A program made the position numbers and the translations under genes. Shown here one piece after another: positions 9,699 through 24,390 of a DNA stretch of 41,592 nucleotides. The DNA lies in NCBI GenBank assembly GCA_036170655.1, contig JAVHPP010000091.1, positions 1-41,592 on the forward strand, in the 5' to 3' direction. The DNA is from Candidatus Zixiibacteriota bacterium (GTDB lineage: Bacteria > Zixibacteria > MSB-5A5 > WJJR01). Below the pieces are notes generated by a model. That model worked only from the letters and a program-made list of their open reading frames with translations. It searched no databases and was not told where the DNA came from. The number at the start of each line of letters is the position of its first letter. The stretch's first letter is position 1.

Positions 9699-11630
9699 CT
9701 ATGTCAACTGCCTGCGAACGAGGTTTTCCGCGCCGCCAGCGACGACCAGCTCCTGCGCGACTGTGGAGAGTGGCGAAAATGGGAACTGGCGGCCATCACA
9801 CGCGATGACCGACTTTTGATAATCAACATCGAGGTCTGGGCCAACAATTGTCGGTGCGGTGGCATCACTGTACTTCTCTCGCAGGAAGTCTACCAGGGCT
9901 GGGCACTCGAAGACGACAAAGCCGTTGTTGAAGGCGTTGCGCTTATAGGTCTCGTTGAATGACACAGCAATCACGCATTGGATACCACGGTAGTCGAGCG
10001 CGGTGGCTGCTTGCTCGCGGGAGGAGCCGGTGCCGAAATTGCGACCGGCGACGATGATGTCGCCCTTCTGGGCGAGTGTCTGGAAACTCGGGTCGTAGTT
10101 CAGCATGCAGGCGGCGGCCATTTCCTCATGTGTCAGATTGTCTTTGTAAGTAAAGGTGCCGCCGTAGATACCGTCGGTGTTGAGGTTGTCGACAGGGAGC
10201 CAGAGCGCTCGTCCGTGGATCGAAGACGGGAATCCGGCGACGATTTCTGTCGCTTTGGCCGCCTGCGGCGGTTTGTGATGCTTCGTTGATGAAATCCGTC
10301 CTGCCACTTCGCAGAAGTCGACGGGAGCCGAGATGTAGCCGGCCACAGCGGAGGCGGCCACGACCGCCGGGCTGCCGAGATAGACCTGCGCGTCACGATG
10401 GCCCATGCGCCCCTTGAAGTTGCGATTGGTCGCGCTGATGCCGACTTCGCCGGCCTGCAGCGTGCCGGTGCCCAGCCCGATACAGGGACCACACCCGGAC
10501 GGGAGCATGATGGCGCCGGCATCCATCAGAATCTTCCAGTAGCCCGACTCCTCGGCCTGCTTCTGGATATTGACGGAGGCCGCCGCGACATAGAACTTCA
10601 CCCCATCGGCGACACGCTTTCCCTTGATGATCCGGGCAGCCTCGGCCAGGTCTTCGAGACGCGCGTTGACACAACTCAGCAGGTACGCTTTGTCGATCTT
10701 GACTCGCTTTTTCTGAATCTCCGGCAGGGAGATCATGGTCTTGACATGGTTGGGACCAGACACGTGCGGGATCACTGACGATAGATCGAGTGTCAGATCA
10801 ATTGCGTAATACGCATCGGGATCGGGACTGAGCCTGTCGGCATGCCAGCGGTCAACATCGGCCCGTGAGTACCGCGGCGTCCCCTGCAAGGCAAGAAAAT
10901 CGGCACGGCCATGGAGATAGTCACGGAGCACAAGATCGAATGGGAAGACCCCGGCCAGTGCGCCCCATTCGGTCGTCATATTGGCGATGCTCATCCGCTG
11001 ATCCATCGAGATACTGGCGATGCCATCACCGGCGAACTCAACCGCCATGTTGAGCACTTCATCGTGGTTGAACAATCCGCAGAGTGTGATAATGATATCT
11101 TTCCCCACGACTCCCGGGCGCAGCCGCCCGGTCAGCGTCACACGTGCGACCGGGGGCGCCTGCCACCATGTCTGCCCAGTGGCCCAGATCGCCGCCGCGT
11201 CGGTGCGTACCACCGGCGTGCCCAGCGCCGCCATCGCGCCATATAGATTGGAATGAGAGTCGCTGCCGACAACCATGCTTCCCGGCGTGACGTAGCCGTA
11301 CTCGACCATGACCTGATGAGAGATGCCGGTCCCGGCCGGGTAGAAGTCGATGCCGTGCTCCCTGGCGAACACTTCGATCCTGGCGTATTTGCCGAGATTA
11401 TCAGAGGACGTGTTCTGGATATCGTGATCGATGGCAAAAACCGGCTGACGCGGATCAAAAACCCGGCCGGCGCCAATGGTCTTGAACTTGCTCATTACCG
11501 CGCTGGTATTGTCGTGCGTCATCACGTGCCTGGGGCGGATGCGGATGAAATCCCCGGCGTGCACCAGTTCTCCAGACGCAATCCCCACGGCGTGGGCGGT
11601 GGCGATTTTTTCTACAAGTGTCTGGCCCAT
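9699..11630 (-). CDS. lysF: Single-chain homoaconitase-family hydratase (fungal Lys4/LysF-like; large and swivel domains fused)
   Basis: HDNT, DHD.QN, SDSHSN and TPVVRTDAAAIWATGQTWWQ motifs; [4Fe-4S] ligands SCVN and CGPCIG; C-terminal DNLNTDGIY and NFGTGSSREQA. ATG 11630 with SD GGGAG. Confidence 0.88.
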   Translation of the reverse strand: MGQTLVEKIATAHAVGIASGELVHAGDFIRIRPRHVMTHDNTSAVMSKFKTIGAGRVFDPRQPVFAIDHDIQNTSSDNLGKYARIEVFAREHGIDFYPAGTGISHQVMVEYGYVTPGSMVVGSDSHSNLYGAMAALGTPVVRTDAAAIWATGQTWWQAPPVARVTLTGRLRPGVVGKDIIITLCGLFNHDEVLNMAVEFAGDGIASISMDQRMSIANMTTEWGALAGVFPFDLVLRDYLHGRADFLALQGTPRYSRADVDRWHADRLSPDPDAYYAIDLTLDLSSVIPHVSGPNHVKTMISLPEIQKKRVKIDKAYLLSCVNARLEDLAEAARIIKGKRVADGVKFYVAAASVNIQKQAEESGYWKILMDAGAIMLPSGCGPCIGLGTGTLQAGEVGISATNRNFKGRMGHRDAQVYLGSPAVVAASAVAGYISAPVDFCEVAGRISSTKHHKPPQAAKATEIVAGFPSSIHGRALWLPVDNLNTDGIYGGTFTYKDNLTHEEMAAACMLNYDPSFQTLAQKGDIIVAGRNFGTGSSREQAATALDYRGIQCVIAVSFNETYKRNAFNNGFVVFECPALVDFLREKYSDATAPTIVGPDLDVDYQKSVIACDGRQFPFSPLSTVAQELVVAGGAENLVRRQLT

Positions 11631-11669
11631 CGACGGACTCCCCGAATATTCAGATTCCAAAAACAGCGA

Positions 11670-12203
11670 TCACCCACCCACCAGCTCGAAATCGATAAAG
11701 TCGGCGTGATGCAGCACGATGCCCTCGGGGGTGCGTTTCCCGCCGGCCGCTTCTTTTGAGTGCATGGCAACAACATGGATAACCGCATCGGGAAGACCCT
11801 GCTCCCAGCAAAGGCCGACCCCCGAAAACGGGTGACGGAGCAGCTTGCCGTGCTCGCTTTTCACGAACTGTCCATCTTTCTTTGTGAATTCGAGCGCCTT
11901 GCCGACATCGGCCAGCATCGCACCGGCAATCAGGATGTCGCGGTTCACCATATTCCGGCTGCCATAGGATTTGTCGAGGACATCCCAGCAGGCCATGCAC
12001 ATCTTGCAAACCGTCCGGACATGTTCAACGAATGTCACGCTGACATTGGGCACCAGAAGAGTGAACGGCATGGCGCGCAGATCATCGTATGTCAGATCGC
12101 TGCGCTTCATCGCCGCGGTCCAGGCCGCAGCCGTTTTTGCGCGCAATGCCGCGTCCTTGATTTCATTGATCTCCGGGAAAATGGACAGGATTTCTTCGGG
12201 CAT
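11670..12203 (-). CDS. HD/HDIG-superfamily protein with HD motif changed to AD
   Basis: EHV...MLADVGK...RHPFSG...MHSKE...HHADF pattern; ATG 12203 with SD GAGG (alternative start 12224). Confidence 0.8.
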   Translation of the reverse strand: MPEEILSIFPEINEIKDAALRAKTAAAWTAAMKRSDLTYDDLRAMPFTLLVPNVSVTFVEHVRTVCKMCMACWDVLDKSYGSRNMVNRDILIAGAMLADVGKALEFTKKDGQFVKSEHGKLLRHPFSGVGLCWEQGLPDAVIHVVAMHSKEAAGGKRTPEGIVLHHADFIDFELVGG

Positions 12204-12224
12204 GGGATATCCTCGCTGTTCCAT

Positions 12225-13004
12225 TCAAGTCAGGTGCCGCAGCGGCGGTCCGTCATAAGTGATGTCGGTTGGGTGGATCCGCCGCATCGGCTTCTGGCGT
12301 GTCTTTTCTTCATGCGCATGGGCCAGAAGACCGGGCAGTCGTGAGATCATAAAGAACGCATTTCCAAGCGCCGGCGGAATGTTAAGATCAACCAAGACGG
12401 CGGCAATGGCGCCATCTACGTTCAACGGCAGCGACTTTCCGGTCGCACGTGCAATCGCCGCTTCCAGAGCACGCGCCATCTTCAGTCCATCTCCGGCCTT
12501 CTCGAGATCGTCAACCATCTGCAGCAGCCGTGTTGTGCGCGGGTCTTTGGTATGCAGGCGGTGGCCAAATCCAGGGAGGCGCGCACCGCGGGCCTTGTAC
12601 GAGTCGAACGTCGACTTGGCCGCATCTTCGACAGACAGTCCCTTGTCCCTGACCAGAATCAGGGCCTCACGCATCGCGGTCATGCTGTCTTCAATCGCGC
12701 CGCCATGGAACTTCGAGATTGCGAGTATCCCGGCCGCGACCGCTGAGCCGAGAGGCGCGCCCGTCGATGCCACTGTCACTGTGGCGAGCGCCGATGGCGG
12801 CGATGTGCCATGGTCGAGCGATGAGACAAAGATCGCATCGAGGATCGTGGCCGTGGCCTTGTCTGGGAGTTCGCCAGTCAATGCAAGGTAAATTGCCTCG
12901 GCAAATCCGGCATGTCCCATCAATTCTTCGACCGGGTACCCGCGCAGACGGATTGTATTCGGCCCGATTTCCGTGATGGCCGACGGCCAGTTCAGTTCAC
13001 CCAT
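12225..13004 (-). CDS. Citryl-CoA lyase (short citrate-synthase family)
   Basis: 259 aa; IRLRGY, DHG..PPS, HGGA, PGFGHR, DPR and NVDG motifs; too short for a full citrate synthase. Confidence 0.87.
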   Translation of the reverse strand: MGELNWPSAITEIGPNTIRLRGYPVEELMGHAGFAEAIYLALTGELPDKATATILDAIFVSSLDHGTSPPSALATVTVASTGAPLGSAVAAGILAISKFHGGAIEDSMTAMREALILVRDKGLSVEDAAKSTFDSYKARGARLPGFGHRLHTKDPRTTRLLQMVDDLEKAGDGLKMARALEAAIARATGKSLPLNVDGAIAAVLVDLNIPPALGNAFFMISRLPGLLAHAHEEKTRQKPMRRIHPTDITYDGPPLRHLT

Positions 13005-13075: not shown

Positions 13076-14002
13076 TCATCGGGAAATGGGGATTTTCGCG
13101 GTGTCCATAGGGCGGATGACCGATTTGACGGCATCGGGAATGTCGCCAAAGTTATCGACCACGGTGACGCCGACCTCGCGCAGACGTTTGACTTTCCCTT
13201 CATGGGTACCACGGCCGCCTTCGATGATCGCACCGGCGTGTGAGAACCGTGTTCCCGACTGGGCGCCCTTCCCGCCAATGTAGGCGACCAGAGGCTTGGT
13301 GAATTTTCCGGCAGCAATCAAGTCAGCCACGCGCTCTTCCTGTGTCGAGCCGATTTCGCCGAACATCACGATGCAATCCGTTTCCGGATCCGCCTCGAAT
13401 AACTCCATGACCGCCGGATGGTCTGTGCCGACGATGGCGTCACCACCCACATGAACGATGGTCGAAAGACCAATGCCAGCGCGGGACAGATAGTAGGCGA
13501 TCGAGGAGGTGATCCCGCCCGATCGCGACGACACACCCACCCGACCGGGAAGAAACCAATCTCTGGCCGCGGCGGCGGAACCACCCATCATCCCAAACAC
13601 GGCCTTGCCGGGCGAGAGCAATCCCAAGGTGTTCGGGCCGATGAATCGCGCCCCCGCGTTTCTGGCGGTGGCGGCGATTTCGAGGACATCGTAGATCGGC
13701 ACACGGTCAGGGACGATTACCAGAAGCTTGATGCCAGCCGCCAGCGCTTCCAGCGCGGCATTCTTCACCAACGGCGCGGGCACAAAAACGACCGAGACAT
13801 CCAAGACACCGATCTTCTCCACTGCTTCGATGACCGTATCAAAGACGGGTACACCCAGCACATTCTGTCCCCCTTTGCCGGGTGTGCAGCCGGCGACCAC
13901 ACGGGTGCCGTAACGCTGCATCAATTGTGTGCGCGCCATTCCCTCGCGCCCGGTGATACCCTGCACAATGACAGTCTTGATTTCGTCGACGAGGATGCTC
14001 AT
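13076..14002 (-). CDS. SucD-like CoA-ligase alpha subunit (citryl-CoA synthetase small-subunit-like)
   Basis: MSILVD, VQGITG, PGKGG, IGPNTLG, SRSGG, GGD and GEIG motifs; phospho-His motif FSHAGA. Confidence 0.9.
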   Translation of the reverse strand: MSILVDEIKTVIVQGITGREGMARTQLMQRYGTRVVAGCTPGKGGQNVLGVPVFDTVIEAVEKIGVLDVSVVFVPAPLVKNAALEALAAGIKLLVIVPDRVPIYDVLEIAATARNAGARFIGPNTLGLLSPGKAVFGMMGGSAAAARDWFLPGRVGVSSRSGGITSSIAYYLSRAGIGLSTIVHVGGDAIVGTDHPAVMELFEADPETDCIVMFGEIGSTQEERVADLIAAGKFTKPLVAYIGGKGAQSGTRFSHAGAIIEGGRGTHEGKVKRLREVGVTVVDNFGDIPDAVKSVIRPMDTAKIPISR

Positions 14003-14089: not shown

Positions 14090-15652
14090 TCAGTTTTCGG
14101 CCGCGACCTTCGCACGGTATTCATCCAGTCCAGGAATCGGCAGGATGACCCGTCCGCCGCTTTTGCCACCGACGCGGCATTCGACTTCGCACGCCAGACA
14201 TTCGATGCACTTGCCGGCTTTGGCCTCGTCACGCGAGATGTTCAGCACCACAGCGCCATTTTCTTCTTTCAGGATCTGGGGCACGCAGGTCTTGATGCAA
14301 CTCTTCGTCGTGCACTCGCGGCACAGCGCGTGGTCGAAAATGATCCGGCCGGTCGGAGTTTCAAAGGAGTATGGGTCCTTGGCCACGAAGTCGAGAGTGA
14401 CGGGCGCCATGGGGCGCGGCGCCGTGTCCCCTTGCCGTGCATTGAGTAATGATTGCATCCGTTCGGCGCAGAAGTCGGCGGTGTCGTCTTTCTTGTATCC
14501 CTCGACCGGCGCCGGGAGGTTTTTCGTGTATTCGGTGAGAATGTGGATCGCCTGATCTTCTCCGTTGCCGCCGAGACGGATCACGGCGGGAATGGAAAGA
14601 TTCTCCTCCCAGAATGCCTTGACCAACCCGCGCGCGGAGTGAAATTGCTCCTGTGAGGCAACACCTGATCCCGAACCGAAATAACCGTCAATGTTGGGTT
14701 GCGAGAGAATGATCTTGGCGGCACGGTAGACTTTCGAGGCGGGCGGATTGCCGGATGTGTCGGTAAAGTTGGCGATCTTGTATCCGCGTTTGACCAGCGC
14801 ATCCATCGACATCATGGAACCGCCACCACCGGCGCCGTGAAATCCCAGATACCCCTCTCCCCGCTTGTACCCGCGCGCCATCTCAATGAAGTAGAAGGTG
14901 CCGCGGTAGTCATTCTTTTCCACAGTCCAGGCGATTTTGTCGAGTTCGGTGGGCGGGCGCCCAAACTCGCGCGCAATTTCGATCTTCAATTCCGGGTGAC
15001 GGAACACGGCATTGTCATCGACCACGAGACGGCAATCGCACGCGGTGAGCTTGCCATCGGGACGCAGAACAAGCGGGTTGATCTCAACGGACCGCGCCTC
15101 CCACTGGCGCGCAACCTGCCAGAGTCTGAGCAGGGCCTTGGTGAGTTCGTTCTGGAGCGAACCCGTGACGCCCGTCTTGCGCACCGCCTCGCGCGCTTCG
15201 TGTTCGCGCAGCCCGAAGCGTACATCGACCGGAGTCTTCGACACACTCTTGGGAGACTGGCGCGCGAGTTCCTCAACGCCCGATCCGCCAATCGACGAAA
15301 AGATCACCAGCGGCGTCTTGTTGGCATCATCCACGATGATCCCCGCATAGAACTCGCGTATAATTTCGACCCTTTCTTCGATCAAGACCTCAGTGACATC
15401 GAAGCCGCCGAGTTTGAGCGCGAGCATTTGTTCAACGGCTTTCGTGACATCTGTCGTGGTATCGACAAACGCAATGGCGCCCTTGGCTGCACGCGATGTG
15501 GTCCAAGCCTGGGCTTTCACCACGGCAGGGAGACCGCAGATATCGAGGGCGGCCCCGACCTCACGAGCGGAACGAACAACCTGTCCCTTGGGGACAGCAA
15601 ATCCTGCTTCCCGCAGAAGCTGCTTACCCTGATATTCATGTAAACGCGCCAT
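14090..15652 (-). CDS. ATP-grasp CoA-ligase beta subunit (citryl-CoA synthetase/ACL-like) fused to a C-terminal 2x[4Fe-4S] ferredoxin domain
   Basis: LHEYQGK, VKAQ, EINPL and DDNAVFRH motifs; GAGGGGS, ANFTDTSGNP and GSGVAS resemble ACL-type substrate loops; tail CRECTTKSCIKTC...CIECLACEVEC. Confidence 0.88.
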   Translation of the reverse strand: MARLHEYQGKQLLREAGFAVPKGQVVRSAREVGAALDICGLPAVVKAQAWTTSRAAKGAIAFVDTTTDVTKAVEQMLALKLGGFDVTEVLIEERVEIIREFYAGIIVDDANKTPLVIFSSIGGSGVEELARQSPKSVSKTPVDVRFGLREHEAREAVRKTGVTGSLQNELTKALLRLWQVARQWEARSVEINPLVLRPDGKLTACDCRLVVDDNAVFRHPELKIEIAREFGRPPTELDKIAWTVEKNDYRGTFYFIEMARGYKRGEGYLGFHGAGGGGSMMSMDALVKRGYKIANFTDTSGNPPASKVYRAAKIILSQPNIDGYFGSGSGVASQEQFHSARGLVKAFWEENLSIPAVIRLGGNGEDQAIHILTEYTKNLPAPVEGYKKDDTADFCAERMQSLLNARQGDTAPRPMAPVTLDFVAKDPYSFETPTGRIIFDHALCRECTTKSCIKTCVPQILKEENGAVVLNISRDEAKAGKCIECLACEVECRVGGKSGGRVILPIPGLDEYRAKVAAEN

Positions 15653-15660
15653 AGAAAGAT

Positions 15661-15719
15661 TGACCGGCGTCGCTACCGGTCAGAATAAACAATATCGGCT
15701 GACCCAAGATGGTTGTCAA
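15661..15719 (-). promoter_or_regulatory. Putative promoter plus inverted repeat upstream of the CoA-ligase operon
   Basis: TTGACA (15719-14), 17 nt, GATATT (15696-91); then TGACCGG-N8-CCGGTCA (15661-15682) just before an SD-less ATG. Confidence 0.4.
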
Positions 15720-15909: not shown

Positions 15910-17031
15910 ATGATGGCCAAATACAAGATCGCATGGATGCCCGGCGACGGGATTGGTAACGACGTTCTGGAGGCAGCGAAGATCGTCCTCGAGGCGCTCA
16001 AACTGGATGCCGAGTACATCCACGCCGACATCGGTTGGGAGTGCTGGCGCCGGGAAGGGAACGCGCTGCCGGAGCGGACGCTCAGTCTCCTGCGTGAAAC
16101 CAAATGCGCCCTCTTCGGCGCGATCACCTCCAAACCCAAGGAAGAAGCGGAAGCCGAACTGTCACCAGCGTTGAAGGGCAAGGGGCTGAAGTACTCGTCG
16201 CCGATTGTCGGTCTGCGTCAGGCATTTCATCTGCATACCAACCTGCGTCCGTGCAAAGCATACTCCGGCAACCCGCTCAACTATCGCGAGGATATCAACC
16301 TTGTGGTCTTCCGGGAGAACACCGAGGACCTGTACTCGGGCGTGGAGTTCCATCCCGTCCCCGATGATCTTCGCGCCAAGCTCTCCGAACACAACAAGAA
16401 TATGAGGAGATTCGACGCGGTGAGTGGTTCGGACCTGGCGATCTCTTGCCGTATCCTGTCGCGCCAGGCGTGCCGTTCAATCGTTACCGGCGCCTTCGAG
16501 TATGCCCGGAAGTTCGGCTATCCATCGGTCACGGTCATTGAGAAACCGAATGTCATTCGCGAGACATCCGGGCTGATGGTGCGCACCGCGCGTGAGGTGG
16601 CCAAGAACTACCCAGCCATCAAACTCCGCGAAGCCAATATCGACGCGATGTGCATGTGGCTGATCAAAAACCCGCAGGACTACGGCGTGCTGGCGACGTC
16701 AAACCTGTTCGGCGACATCATCTCCGACTTGTGCGCGCAACTGGTCGGAGGCCTGGGATTTGCCTCTTCGGGGAACATCGGCGACACGTATGCGGTCTTC
16801 GAGCCAACGCACGGATCGGCGCCCAAGTACGCGGGCCAGTACAAGGTCAACCCGATGGCGACACTCCTGACGGTCAAGCTCATGCTCGACTGGCTCGGCG
16901 AGATCAAGATGGCGACACGCGTTGAGAGCGCCGTGGCAAAGGTGATCAAGGCGGGACAGTGCCGGACCTACGACATGGGCGGGAACAATACGACGCTGGA
17001 AGTCGCCGAGGCCGTGGCCAGAAACCTGTAA
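15910..17031 (+). CDS. Isocitrate/homoisocitrate/isopropylmalate dehydrogenase family protein
   Basis: PGDGIG, YSSPIVGLR, NLRP, RENTEDLY, NLFGDIISDL and EPTHGSAPKYAG motifs; SD AAGGAG. Confidence 0.93.
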   Translation: MMAKYKIAWMPGDGIGNDVLEAAKIVLEALKLDAEYIHADIGWECWRREGNALPERTLSLLRETKCALFGAITSKPKEEAEAELSPALKGKGLKYSSPIVGLRQAFHLHTNLRPCKAYSGNPLNYREDINLVVFRENTEDLYSGVEFHPVPDDLRAKLSEHNKNMRRFDAVSGSDLAISCRILSRQACRSIVTGAFEYARKFGYPSVTVIEKPNVIRETSGLMVRTAREVAKNYPAIKLREANIDAMCMWLIKNPQDYGVLATSNLFGDIISDLCAQLVGGLGFASSGNIGDTYAVFEPTHGSAPKYAGQYKVNPMATLLTVKLMLDWLGEIKMATRVESAVAKVIKAGQCRTYDMGGNNTTLEVAEAVARNL

Positions 17032-23045: not shown

Positions 23046-23074
23046 ATGGTATCGGGAGCGAAGGCGCGTGTCAA
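23046..23074 (-). promoter_or_regulatory. Sigma70-type promoter of the gatC-kds operon
   Basis: TTGACA, 17 nt, TACCAT on the minus strand. Confidence 0.65.
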
Positions 23075-23211
23075 TGCGATTCCCCTGCACCCGTGCGCAC
23101 ATAATCGTTACCCCCTTCAACCGGGCTGGTAGACACGGAAACCCGCTTGCCCGCCTTGGTCATCTCACGTTCATTGTCTGCTGTGCTGTTCCTTGGAGAG
23201 CCGACCCGGCC

Positions 23212-24390
23212 ATGAAAATTCCTCCCGAACATATTCAAGGTGCGATTGCTGGCGCTGGGCTTGACGGCTGGTTGCTCTGCGACTTCCACGGATCGAATCC
23301 CATCGCAGGTGAGCTCGTCGGCGTCTCGGGGCTCGTCACCCGCAGATGGTGCTGCTGGGTGCCACGCCACGGACGCCTCCAAATGGTCTGCCACACCATG
23401 GAGCGCACACCGTTTTCGCATCTCGACACCGAATACCGGTATTACCTGTCGTGGCGTGAGTTGGACGCGGCGATGCGATCGGCGTTGGGCGACGCCAGGC
23501 GGATTGCGATGGAATACTCCCCCGGTAATGCGATTCCGTATGTCGCCCATGTCGACGCGGGAACCGTCGAGAAGATCCGTTCGTGGGGGATCGAGGTGGT
23601 GTCGTCCGCGGACTTGGTGGCGCATTTTCTGGCACGCTGGACCCCCGAACAGATCGATGGACACCGAACAGCGGCGGCCGCTCTGCTTGACATCAAGAAC
23701 CAGACATTTGTGTGGATCGGTGAATGCTTGAGAAAAGGCAAGTCTATCAGTGAGTACGACGTGGCCGGCTTTGTCAGAGATCAGTTTGCGGCACGCGGGC
23801 TGATGACCGATGCGGGACCGATCTGCGCCGTTGATGGGCATGCCGGGAGTCCGCATTACGAACCGGCCGCCACCGGCTCGACGCGACTGGGTCCGGAACA
23901 ACTGGTGCTGCTTGACCTCTGGGCCAAATGGAGCACACCCGATGCCGTCTATGCCGACATCACCTGGACTGGATTCACCGGCAGCGTTGTCCCGCGACCG
24001 ATGGCCGAGGTGTTCGATATCGTGCGCCGGGCGCGAGACAGCGCGGTCGAATACGCCAACGTGCGTCTCGCCGCCGGAGCGGCACTCCACGCGTGTGAAA
24101 TTGACGACGCCTGCCGCCGCGTCATCGCCGACGCCGGATATGGCGACCGGTTTATCCACCGGACTGGGCATTCAATCGGCACCAGCGTTCATGGCGTGGG
24201 ACCAAATATCGACAACCTCGAAACGCAAGATCAGCGGCTCCTCGAAAACGGGATGTGCTTCTCGGTTGAACCCGGCATTTATCTGCCCGAGTTCGGGATC
24301 CGGTCGGAGATCGATGTCCTGATCGAAAATGATCGTGCCGTGGTCACAACGCTGCCGCTGCAAACGGAGATTGTCCCACTGCTGCCGTGA
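23212..24390 (+). CDS. Xaa-Pro aminopeptidase family (M24) metallopeptidase
   Basis: PHY, DLWAK, YADIT, HRTGHSIG, EPGIY and RSE metal-ligand motifs. ATG 23212; the longer ORF call overlaps gatC. Confidence 0.92.
   Translation: MKIPPEHIQGAIAGAGLDGWLLCDFHGSNPIAGELVGVSGLVTRRWCCWVPRHGRLQMVCHTMERTPFSHLDTEYRYYLSWRELDAAMRSALGDARRIAMEYSPGNAIPYVAHVDAGTVEKIRSWGIEVVSSADLVAHFLARWTPEQIDGHRTAAAALLDIKNQTFVWIGECLRKGKSISEYDVAGFVRDQFAARGLMTDAGPICAVDGHAGSPHYEPAATGSTRLGPEQLVLLDLWAKWSTPDAVYADITWTGFTGSVVPRPMAEVFDIVRRARDSAVEYANVRLAAGAALHACEIDDACRRVIADAGYGDRFIHRTGHSIGTSVHGVGPNIDNLETQDQRLLENGMCFSVEPGIYLPEFGIRSEIDVLIENDRAVVTTLPLQTEIVPLLP

Follow-up and report, generated by a model that had tools for sequence, protein, structure and literature searches.

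The closest described counterparts of the locus presented here are the three-gene citryl-CoA system of Hydrogenobacter thermophilus (CcsA/CcsB and the lyase Ccl; PDB 6HXQ, 6HXP) and, for the genes around it, the upper alpha-aminoadipate pathway of fungi. Fazius et al. (PMC3556520) describe homoaconitases as converting only homoaconitate and homoisocitrate, so that a second enzyme is needed, and PrpD as dehydrating (2S,3S)-methylcitrate, which aconitases do not handle. In the methylcitrate cycle, PrpD exchanges with AcnD/PrpF (PMC5690661). Here, we analyze a gene at positions 14090..15652 (− strand) of a 41,592-nucleotide stretch of DNA (the window) from a Candidatus Zixiibacteriota bacterium (the host; contig JAVHPP010000091.1). 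It encodes the beta (large) subunit of a CoA ligase, an open reading frame (ORF) of 520 amino acids (aa) with no internal stop, which ends in a ferredoxin-type tail.

We propose, at a probability of about 0.5, that this protein is the large subunit of an ADP-forming (S)-homocitryl-CoA synthetase. Together with its alpha subunit and a separate lyase it would form a split "ATP-homocitrate lyase", in which the tail would be structural or accessory. The proposal builds on the observed genes and their conserved linkage, on family assignments and motif matches, and on gene swaps and conservation of the tail. The six-gene cluster would likely reverse the first half of the lysine pathway of fungi, taking homocitrate to acetyl-CoA and 2-oxoglutarate, and its likely role is disposal of 2-oxoadipate. 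In the proposed route, 2-oxoadipate from lysine breakdown would be combined with CO2 and NADH to give homoisocitrate (dehydrogenase, gene at 15910), which homoaconitase (gene at 9699) would convert to cis-homoaconitate. A PrpD-like enzyme encoded on host contig C61, or an aconitase-type pair in other genomes, would then yield (S)-homocitrate. The window ligase would activate it with ATP to (S)-homocitryl-CoA, and the lyase would split this into acetyl-CoA and 2-oxoglutarate. The route would be reversible, with net cleavage most likely.

The literature searched, with most subscription journals outside its scope, yielded no mention of homocitryl-CoA and no description of reductive carboxylation of 2-oxoadipate to homoisocitrate or of PrpD acting with homocitrate or homoaconitate. 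Nor did the portions of text accessible there contain an operon joining citryl-CoA synthetase/lyase with homocitrate/homoaconitase genes. What it held on these taxa was ecology, with no description of the operon found. A bolder formulation, an undescribed CO2-fixing breakdown of lysine and 2-oxoadipate by the upper aminoadipate pathway in reverse, via (S)-homocitrate, with the first ATP-homocitrate lyase, spread over hundreds of uncultured species and redox-gated by the Fe–S module of the ligase, falls somewhat short of even odds.

Operon context and predicted substrate

The six-gene cluster had been missed by an earlier note made from the window's letters alone, and it points to homocitrate. 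The beta gene is followed by a SucD-like alpha subunit (13076..14002, −; 308 aa, FSHAGA phospho-His-type motif), which scores below the SucD cut-offs, and by a citrate-synthase-fold (CS-fold) acyl-CoA lyase of the citryl-CoA-lyase family (12225..13004, −; PRK06224.1-6, 235 bits over a cut-off of 212; best PDB match 6hxp, E 2e-54). Then come an HD-fold protein (11670..12224, −) and a fused homoaconitase of the fungal Lys4/LysF type (9699..11660, −; likely start near 11630), in which the Fe–S Cys motifs are present. The sixth gene (15910..17031, +) encodes a beta-decarboxylating dehydrogenase whose YSSPIVxLR motif is that of fungal-type homoisocitrate dehydrogenase; it is divergent here and sits in the same operon in most relatives.

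This arrangement is widespread. A GTDB scan confirmed at least 499 of 601 candidate stretches as relatives, of which 80 were kept as a set of loci; they come from Anaerolineae, Calditrichota, KSB1, Marinimicrobia, Aminicenantes, Gemmatimonadota, Acidobacteriota and others. Many of these are cut by contig ends; alpha was found in 75, the lyase in 65, the HD gene in 46, an aconitase-type gene in 41 and the dehydrogenase in 36. A second set of 89 loci was anchored on the HD gene and combined 49 of 74 metagenome loci (the 25 weakest were dropped) with 40 of 108 genome hits. The nearest named relatives of the beta subunit are from Zixibacteria; within the host's taxonomic family, 12 of 14 genomes carry a member, as do all three others of the order and 1 of 43 further genomes of the class.

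The substrate is quite probably homocitrate rather than citrate, judging from the homoaconitase match, the SPIV motif of the dehydrogenase, a second dehydratase slot, the changed CcsA loops and the host's own tricarboxylic acid (TCA) enzymes. The window aconitase scores 742.8 bits with the homoaconitase model TIGR00139 (cut-off 529.9), which the two relatives tested also pass. Loci whose homoaconitase is not fused have instead a "type A" pair of two subunits carrying NTDVI[FY]PGKYTY, and the two forms never occur together (0/89 loci). In the dehydrogenase the motif is YSSPIVGLR, where homoisocitrate dehydrogenase 3ty3 has YSSPIVALR; it does not have the Asn of the aligned isocitrate dehydrogenases (IDH; S-L/I-N-V), a difference which we take to set substrate specificity between the two enzymes. 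SPIV is present in 35/37 locus copies, in 29/31 of the second set and in 120/120 homologs.

The second dehydratase slot holds either a PrpD-family gene (15/81 loci) or a "type B" aconitase pair (18/81), never both (0/81). Among the 40 loci with at least 8 kb downstream, 14 have PrpD, 15 type B, none both and 11 neither (p = 3.3e-4); among 31 HD-anchored loci with the dehydrogenase, the counts are 14, 11, 0 and 6 (p = 1.5e-4). These and later p values come from Fisher tests that ignore kinship among loci and genomes, and they overstate because kin are not independent. The host carries its PrpD ortholog on contig C61 (46–58% identity); operon PrpD homologs score far under the PrpD model. The slot points to homocitrate because citrate would need neither enzyme. 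It also bears on stereochemistry. The (3S)-thioester is the form on which CS-fold lyases and citrate (pro-3S)-lyase act, so the likely form here is (S)-homocitrate, the enantiomer of what homocitrate synthase makes. An ordinary aconitase would not fit that configuration. PrpD would suit it; this enzyme already dehydrates the acyl-derived arm of a Si-face product.

Taken whole, the beta subunit is closest to SucC (PDB 3UFX, E 3e-57), with ATP-citrate lyase (ACL) weaker (E 2e-24). It stays below the SucC models PRK00696 (231.7 against 370) and TIGR01016 (221.5 against 375.6), for which the host's own SucC scores 508 and 477, and the SucC loops GGRGK, DxGGG and FGGI are not found in it. Its ligase domain alone is nearest to CcsA (E 7.6e-15), then SucC (1.2e-12) and ACL beta (9.5e-7). 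The carboxylic-acid-substrate loops GAGGGGS, ANFTDTSGNP and GSGVAS(QEQ) (14654..14836, −; starting at residues 273, 294 and 328) are invariant or nearly so throughout the family. Against CcsA (6HXQ), the RPPTE, GGGGS and ANFTDxxGNPP segments agree, which covers the first two loops, whereas GG-TANNTR has become GSGVASQEQ and VRRNG has become IRLGG, so that the citrate loops are not preserved. Both replacements are invariant in 35 family sequences. The equivalent residues of human ACLY (N346, T348 and R379) presumably bind citrate. In a FastTree phylogeny (89 of 129 rows) the family stands apart from SucC-loop and ANF/NT-loop proteins, CcsA itself being outside the tree.

The reading of the protein as other than SucC, made in the earlier note, is thus borne out by models and loops. 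Its view that the loops resemble ACL was half right, as the ligase domain is nearest CcsA with ACL behind and the third loop departs from both. TSRAA does stand at residue 52 in place of GGRGK, but it is not itself conserved: the family pattern is W-T-T-[G/S/K]-R-A, with only T52 and R54 fixed. The protein is predicted to work like CcsAB plus Ccl or like ACL yet fails their defining loops, and we do not class it as a member of either.

Several observations on the HD protein, the most constant marker of both operon types (the second is described below), stand apart. H68, D106, H131, H150, H155 and D175 are kept in 47/47 copies; at the His of the HD motif, 24 have Ala, as in the window, and 4 have Arg or Cys. 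In one phylum, 108 of 401 genomes carry the gene, and the ESM Atlas returned only "putative HD domain" clusters.

Net direction of the route

If homocitrate is the substrate, net cleavage is moderately favored. One line of evidence is that in 15 of the 31 HD-anchored loci with the dehydrogenase a CitD–CitE-like fusion and a CitF-like gene stand in for the ligase trio; they never occur together with the ligase (0/89 loci). Their CitE and CitF scores are slightly to well under cut-off, and in one locus (L229) the CitF-like gene is paired with a CS-fold lyase. The dehydrogenases of the two operon types form one clade (support 98). Citrate-lyase-type genes are a cleavage system, and this replacement therefore favors the cleavage direction.

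The gene content of the genomes points the same way. Searches of the host genome (100% complete) found no LysX, DHDPS, DapB, lysY/Z/K, argG/H, large aminoadipate reductase or lysine aminomutase, so that the gene set of LysW-type aminoadipate lysine biosynthesis (lysX, lysY, lysZ, lysK) is missing and lysine synthesis is not recognizable. LysX is present in 16/50 module genomes, in 0/16 module-bearing relatives and in 3/25 operon genomes of the phylum Acidobacteriota, a minority that led us to reject strict coupling to LysW biosynthesis. DapB was found in 7/68 genomes but in 4/5 CitDEF-type genomes. In 201 genomes of one class (Anaerolineae, that of locus L026), LKR/SDH-type genes occur in 8 of the 23 with the module against 15 of the 178 others (p = 0.001).

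Net synthesis is the strongest competitor, though doubtful. The lyase and ligase would then replace homocitrate synthase and conserve one ATP, and the 2-oxoadipate made would go into LysW-type lysine synthesis or be oxidized via glutaryl-CoA. Homocitrate synthase is depleted in module genomes: it scores over cut-off in 2/51 of them, and in the same class it is present in 3/23 against 92/178 of the others, also among LysX-positive genomes (3/12 with the module, 87/130 without). Only 3/17 lysW operons of module genomes contain the synthase, and most of them lack homoaconitase and dehydrogenase as well; depletion and synthase-poor operons fit the synthetic direction. The LysX-positive genomes G018, G023, G028 and G032 have two Iso_dh-family matches only, one LeuB-like and one module-type. 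A rough energy estimate from approximate constants and assumed concentrations lies near equilibrium (+3.5 and −2.5 kJ/mol), so the direction is not fixed. LKR/SDH was not found in the host genome; for the entry of lysine it offers one protein matched best in the PDB by PH1688, presumably a lysine 6-dehydrogenase, and an aldehyde dehydrogenase with its highest scores in other families. Against net synthesis stand the swap with citrate-lyase-type genes and the rarity of LysX, with none in the host. The module is probably reversible and mostly cleaving, and it may feed lysine synthesis where LysW exists.

The only HMGL-family synthase of the host (434 aa), which reaches none of the cut-offs, has an IPMDH-like gene and crotonyl-CoA enzymes nearby (G000:C125:23149-27451, or L001:6150-10452), and similar synthase/IPMDH-like pairs occur in G002, G003, G004, G006 and G049. 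Together with a HacA/B-type pair on contig C184 (L004:6890-8649), it possibly constitutes a second, Re-type route. On contig C134 (L189:3905-8018), four genes resemble class I benzoyl-CoA reductase or 2-hydroxyacyl-CoA dehydratase (BcrB 421 against 487, BcrC 342 against 421, and two activase subunits) and run into an aldehyde dehydrogenase.

The ferredoxin-type tail

The beta subunit consists of an ATP-grasp domain (residues 3–215), a CoA-ligase domain (about 225–405), a linker and the tail (residues 424–512; 14117..14383, −). The tail carries CxxCxxxxCxxxC (C444, C447, C452 and C456; 14285..14323, −) and CxxCxxCxxxC (C482, C485, C488 and C492; 14177..14209, −), eight Cys in the crossed-ligation layout of a 2x[4Fe–4S] ferredoxin domain. 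The ORF, both motifs and the four quoted loops are where the earlier note had placed them; the linker it called Pro-rich is present, with a modest 4 Pro in 22 residues. The fusion of ligase and Cys-rich tail it described is conserved. Both motifs are found in 119 of the 120 best homologs (58–85% identity, mostly 496–558 aa), the exception being a 460-aa partial sequence, and in 80/80 GTDB loci, so the tail is not a fusion artefact. The double motif never arose in 100,000 shuffles of the protein, and chance was likewise ruled out. Homologs without the Cys-rich tail, named in advance as a reason for doubt, were looked for, and the tail proved conserved.

In models, the tail folds confidently. 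AlphaFold2 models of the full protein and of the tail alone have pLDDT values of 91.9 (pTM 0.85) and 94.3. Judged by title, all 50 listed structural matches of the tail are ferredoxin-fold or Fe–S chains, with no competing fold; the best has a moderate Z of 7.0 (rmsd 4.2, 79 aligned), while Foldseek with the tail model gave no match at E ≤ 0.001. Of 78 family members, 63 match Pfam Fer4_9 at E ≤ 0.05. In the 520-aa protein, ATP-grasp_2 is over its Pfam cut-off, but Fer4_9, like Citrate_bind, is sub-threshold, and the window tail misses the Pfam Fer4 gathering score (21.6 against 27). The note's assignment to a conserved dicluster-ferredoxin-type domain nevertheless holds.

From its sequence, the tail very probably binds two [4Fe–4S] clusters. 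The strongest sign is evolutionary. In a dicluster ferredoxin, one of the two clusters is ligated, in crossed fashion, by Cys 1, 2, 3 and 8. More distant relatives (P0123, P0124, P0148 and L301) have lost exactly these four and kept Cys 4–7, and such a coordinated loss suggests that the clusters are real. P0182 shows a similar pattern with one extra Cys retained, and P0127, P0156, P0171 and L202 have lost both ligand sets with the domain retained. L301 and L202 sit in the same operon type as the window gene, which makes it likely that the clusters are not required for the ligase chemistry and that the tail has a structural or accessory rather than a catalytic role. The invariance of all eight Cys in the core family weighs against this, as a purely structural role does not demand it.

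That invariance is also an argument for a redox function, which we consider unlikely overall: the clusters could be a redox/O2 switch on the ligase, pass electrons on for an oxidoreductase, or reactivate the Fe–S dehydratases of the operon by reducing them. The best full-length PDB profile match of the tail is the oxidoreductase delta subunit OorD (E 0.004), and oxidoreductase genes lie upstream of the beta gene in 6–7 of 80 loci. However, a small two-cluster (delta) subunit of their own is encoded in 5 of 7 neighboring oxidoreductase loci examined and in two host oxidoreductase gene sets (C49, C132). This leaves the docking of a ferredoxin-dependent 2-oxoacid oxidoreductase, raised in the earlier note, unsupported, and we rejected a captured delta subunit for a delta-less oxidoreductase for the same reason. 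The note's redox/O2 switch keeps the invariant Cys in its favor; against it, relatives in the same operon type retain the domain without one or both ligand sets, and the CitDE/CitF-type operon genes have no ferredoxin motif. Electrons are needed in no ligase step. Modelled in complex with two copies of the lyase, the tail scored 0.00, which counts neither way.

Two further groups of relatives deserve mention. P0157 and P0169 are tailed and keep all eight Cys with degenerate substrate loops and Gly-rich motifs; they are possibly inactive partner subunits. Three tail-less sister ligases (422–426 aa) have different loops, and two of them adjoin CitE-type lyases (read by eye), not a CS-fold lyase.

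Rival substrates and relation to described systems

An ordinary citrate system, in which CcsAB and Ccl equivalents would link acetyl-CoA, citrate and 2-oxoglutarate with a broad-specificity aconitase and dehydrogenase, is improbable. In its favor, the ligase domain is nearest CcsA and the lyase nearest Ccl, the lyase retaining citryl-CoA-lyase motifs with no obvious change. Over its full length, the dehydrogenase scores equally well with isocitrate dehydrogenase 6ltf (227.8 bits) and with homoisocitrate dehydrogenase 3asj (227.2), and it reaches none of the NCBIfam cut-offs (AksF2, 326.7 against 540; AksF, 280 against 500; both are methanogen models). Dual-specificity dehydrogenases exist (NF040855). 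Yet the citrate loops are changed, the IDH Asn is missing, the homoaconitase is a true one and the PrpD/type-B slot would be purposeless. The system would also be redundant beside the separate citrate synthase, aconitase, IDH and SucCD of the host, a set that led us to reject the module as its main TCA enzymes. Another tricarboxylate, such as 2-methylcitrate or a longer homologue, is very improbable: the PrpD-family partner and the uncharacterized type-B dehydratases and HD protein would allow it, but a methylcitrate cycle requires methylisocitrate lyase, none of which was recognized by eye among recurrent neighbors, the PrpD homologs score poorly, and 2-methylisocitrate has a tertiary alcohol that a dehydrogenase cannot oxidize.

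The trio also occurs in other settings. In L045, L051, L052, L053 and L080, a UbiD-family decarboxylase follows beta, alpha and lyase in place of the HD protein and homoaconitase, which suggests reuse of the trio in another pathway or a split operon. One member of the window family (L082:4288-5985) has alpha and lyase fused in a 565-aa ORF, the AclA arrangement. L140 (G202:C12) holds two tail-less beta/alpha pairs in tandem with CitE-type and HMG-CoA-lyase-type genes (by reading) and an ABC importer; the wider clade thus seems to hold several undescribed hydroxy-acid CoA ligase systems.

In the window, the stretch immediately before the beta start (15661-15719, −) contains a sigma-70-like site (10/12) and an 8-bp hairpin; the promoter scan gave 4 sites against 3.0 expected, which is chance level. 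The ORFs at 8-1405 (+; 465 aa) and 23071-24171 (−; 366 aa) have no Pfam match. The other genes are housekeeping: prmC, tldD/pmbA, prfA, rpmE, lptC, kdsD/C/A, pyrG, kdsB and mnmA, with a cysteine desulfurase-like gene, tamA/B, a DegP-like gene, an ECF sigma pair and a chorismate-binding enzyme.

If the homocitryl-CoA synthetase proposal is true, the family of succinyl-CoA synthetase, citryl-CoA synthetase and ACL would gain a new substrate and a new cofactor-binding domain, and Zixibacteria, Anaerolineae, Calditrichota, KSB1, Marinimicrobia and Acidobacteriota would have a new junction between lysine and central carbon metabolism. The current labels in public records, succinyl-CoA synthetase or citryl-CoA lyase, can mislead towards reverse-TCA carbon fixation. 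A reversible, ATP-coupled alternative to homocitrate synthase would be of interest in the engineering of adipate and lysine pathways. The operon is compact, and a direct assay exists for each step. The bacterial operon may also be a candidate source of fungal Lys4 and Lys12.

Compared with known systems, the window genes most resemble CcsA/CcsB and Ccl, sharing the three-gene split architecture, with separate alpha and stand-alone CS-fold lyase. They differ by the ferredoxin tail, the changed third and fourth substrate loops, an identity of 26% in structural comparison and the added homoaconitase, homoisocitrate dehydrogenase-type dehydrogenase, HD and PrpD/type-B genes. ACL (AclB/AclA; PDB 6HXJ, 6HXI) shares the predicted overall reaction type, but here the lyase is a separate gene and alpha is not fused to it (fusion in 1/80 loci), in addition to the tail and altered loops. 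With SucC the protein shares the two-domain fold; other loops, a separate branch and a canonical SucCD elsewhere in the host set it apart. Citrate (pro-3S)-lyase (CitDEF) enters through the genes that replace the trio in related operons, although these score below the CitE and CitF cut-offs. The tail shares the dicluster ferredoxin fold with the delta subunits OorD (8YS5) and PorD (9BT4) and with the non-redox ferredoxin domains of archaeal RNA polymerase D and ABCE1, from which its fusion to a CoA ligase, the x4 spacing in motif 1 and 12–24% identity distinguish it. The exchange of PrpD with an Fe–S dehydratase recalls the PrpD/AcnD swap of the 2-methylcitrate cycle (PMC5690661); here a dehydrogenase, not methylisocitrate lyase, completes the set. 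Finally, the upper alpha-aminoadipate pathway (homocitrate synthase, aconitase with Lys4/LysF, and Lys12; PMC3556520) offers the same Lys4-type homoaconitase, fungal-type dehydrogenase motif and two isomerization enzymes, whereas the operon would use a reversible ligase and lyase instead of a hydrolytic synthase, (S)- and not (R)-homocitrate, and PrpD or type-B enzymes in place of aconitase, mostly in genomes without LysX.

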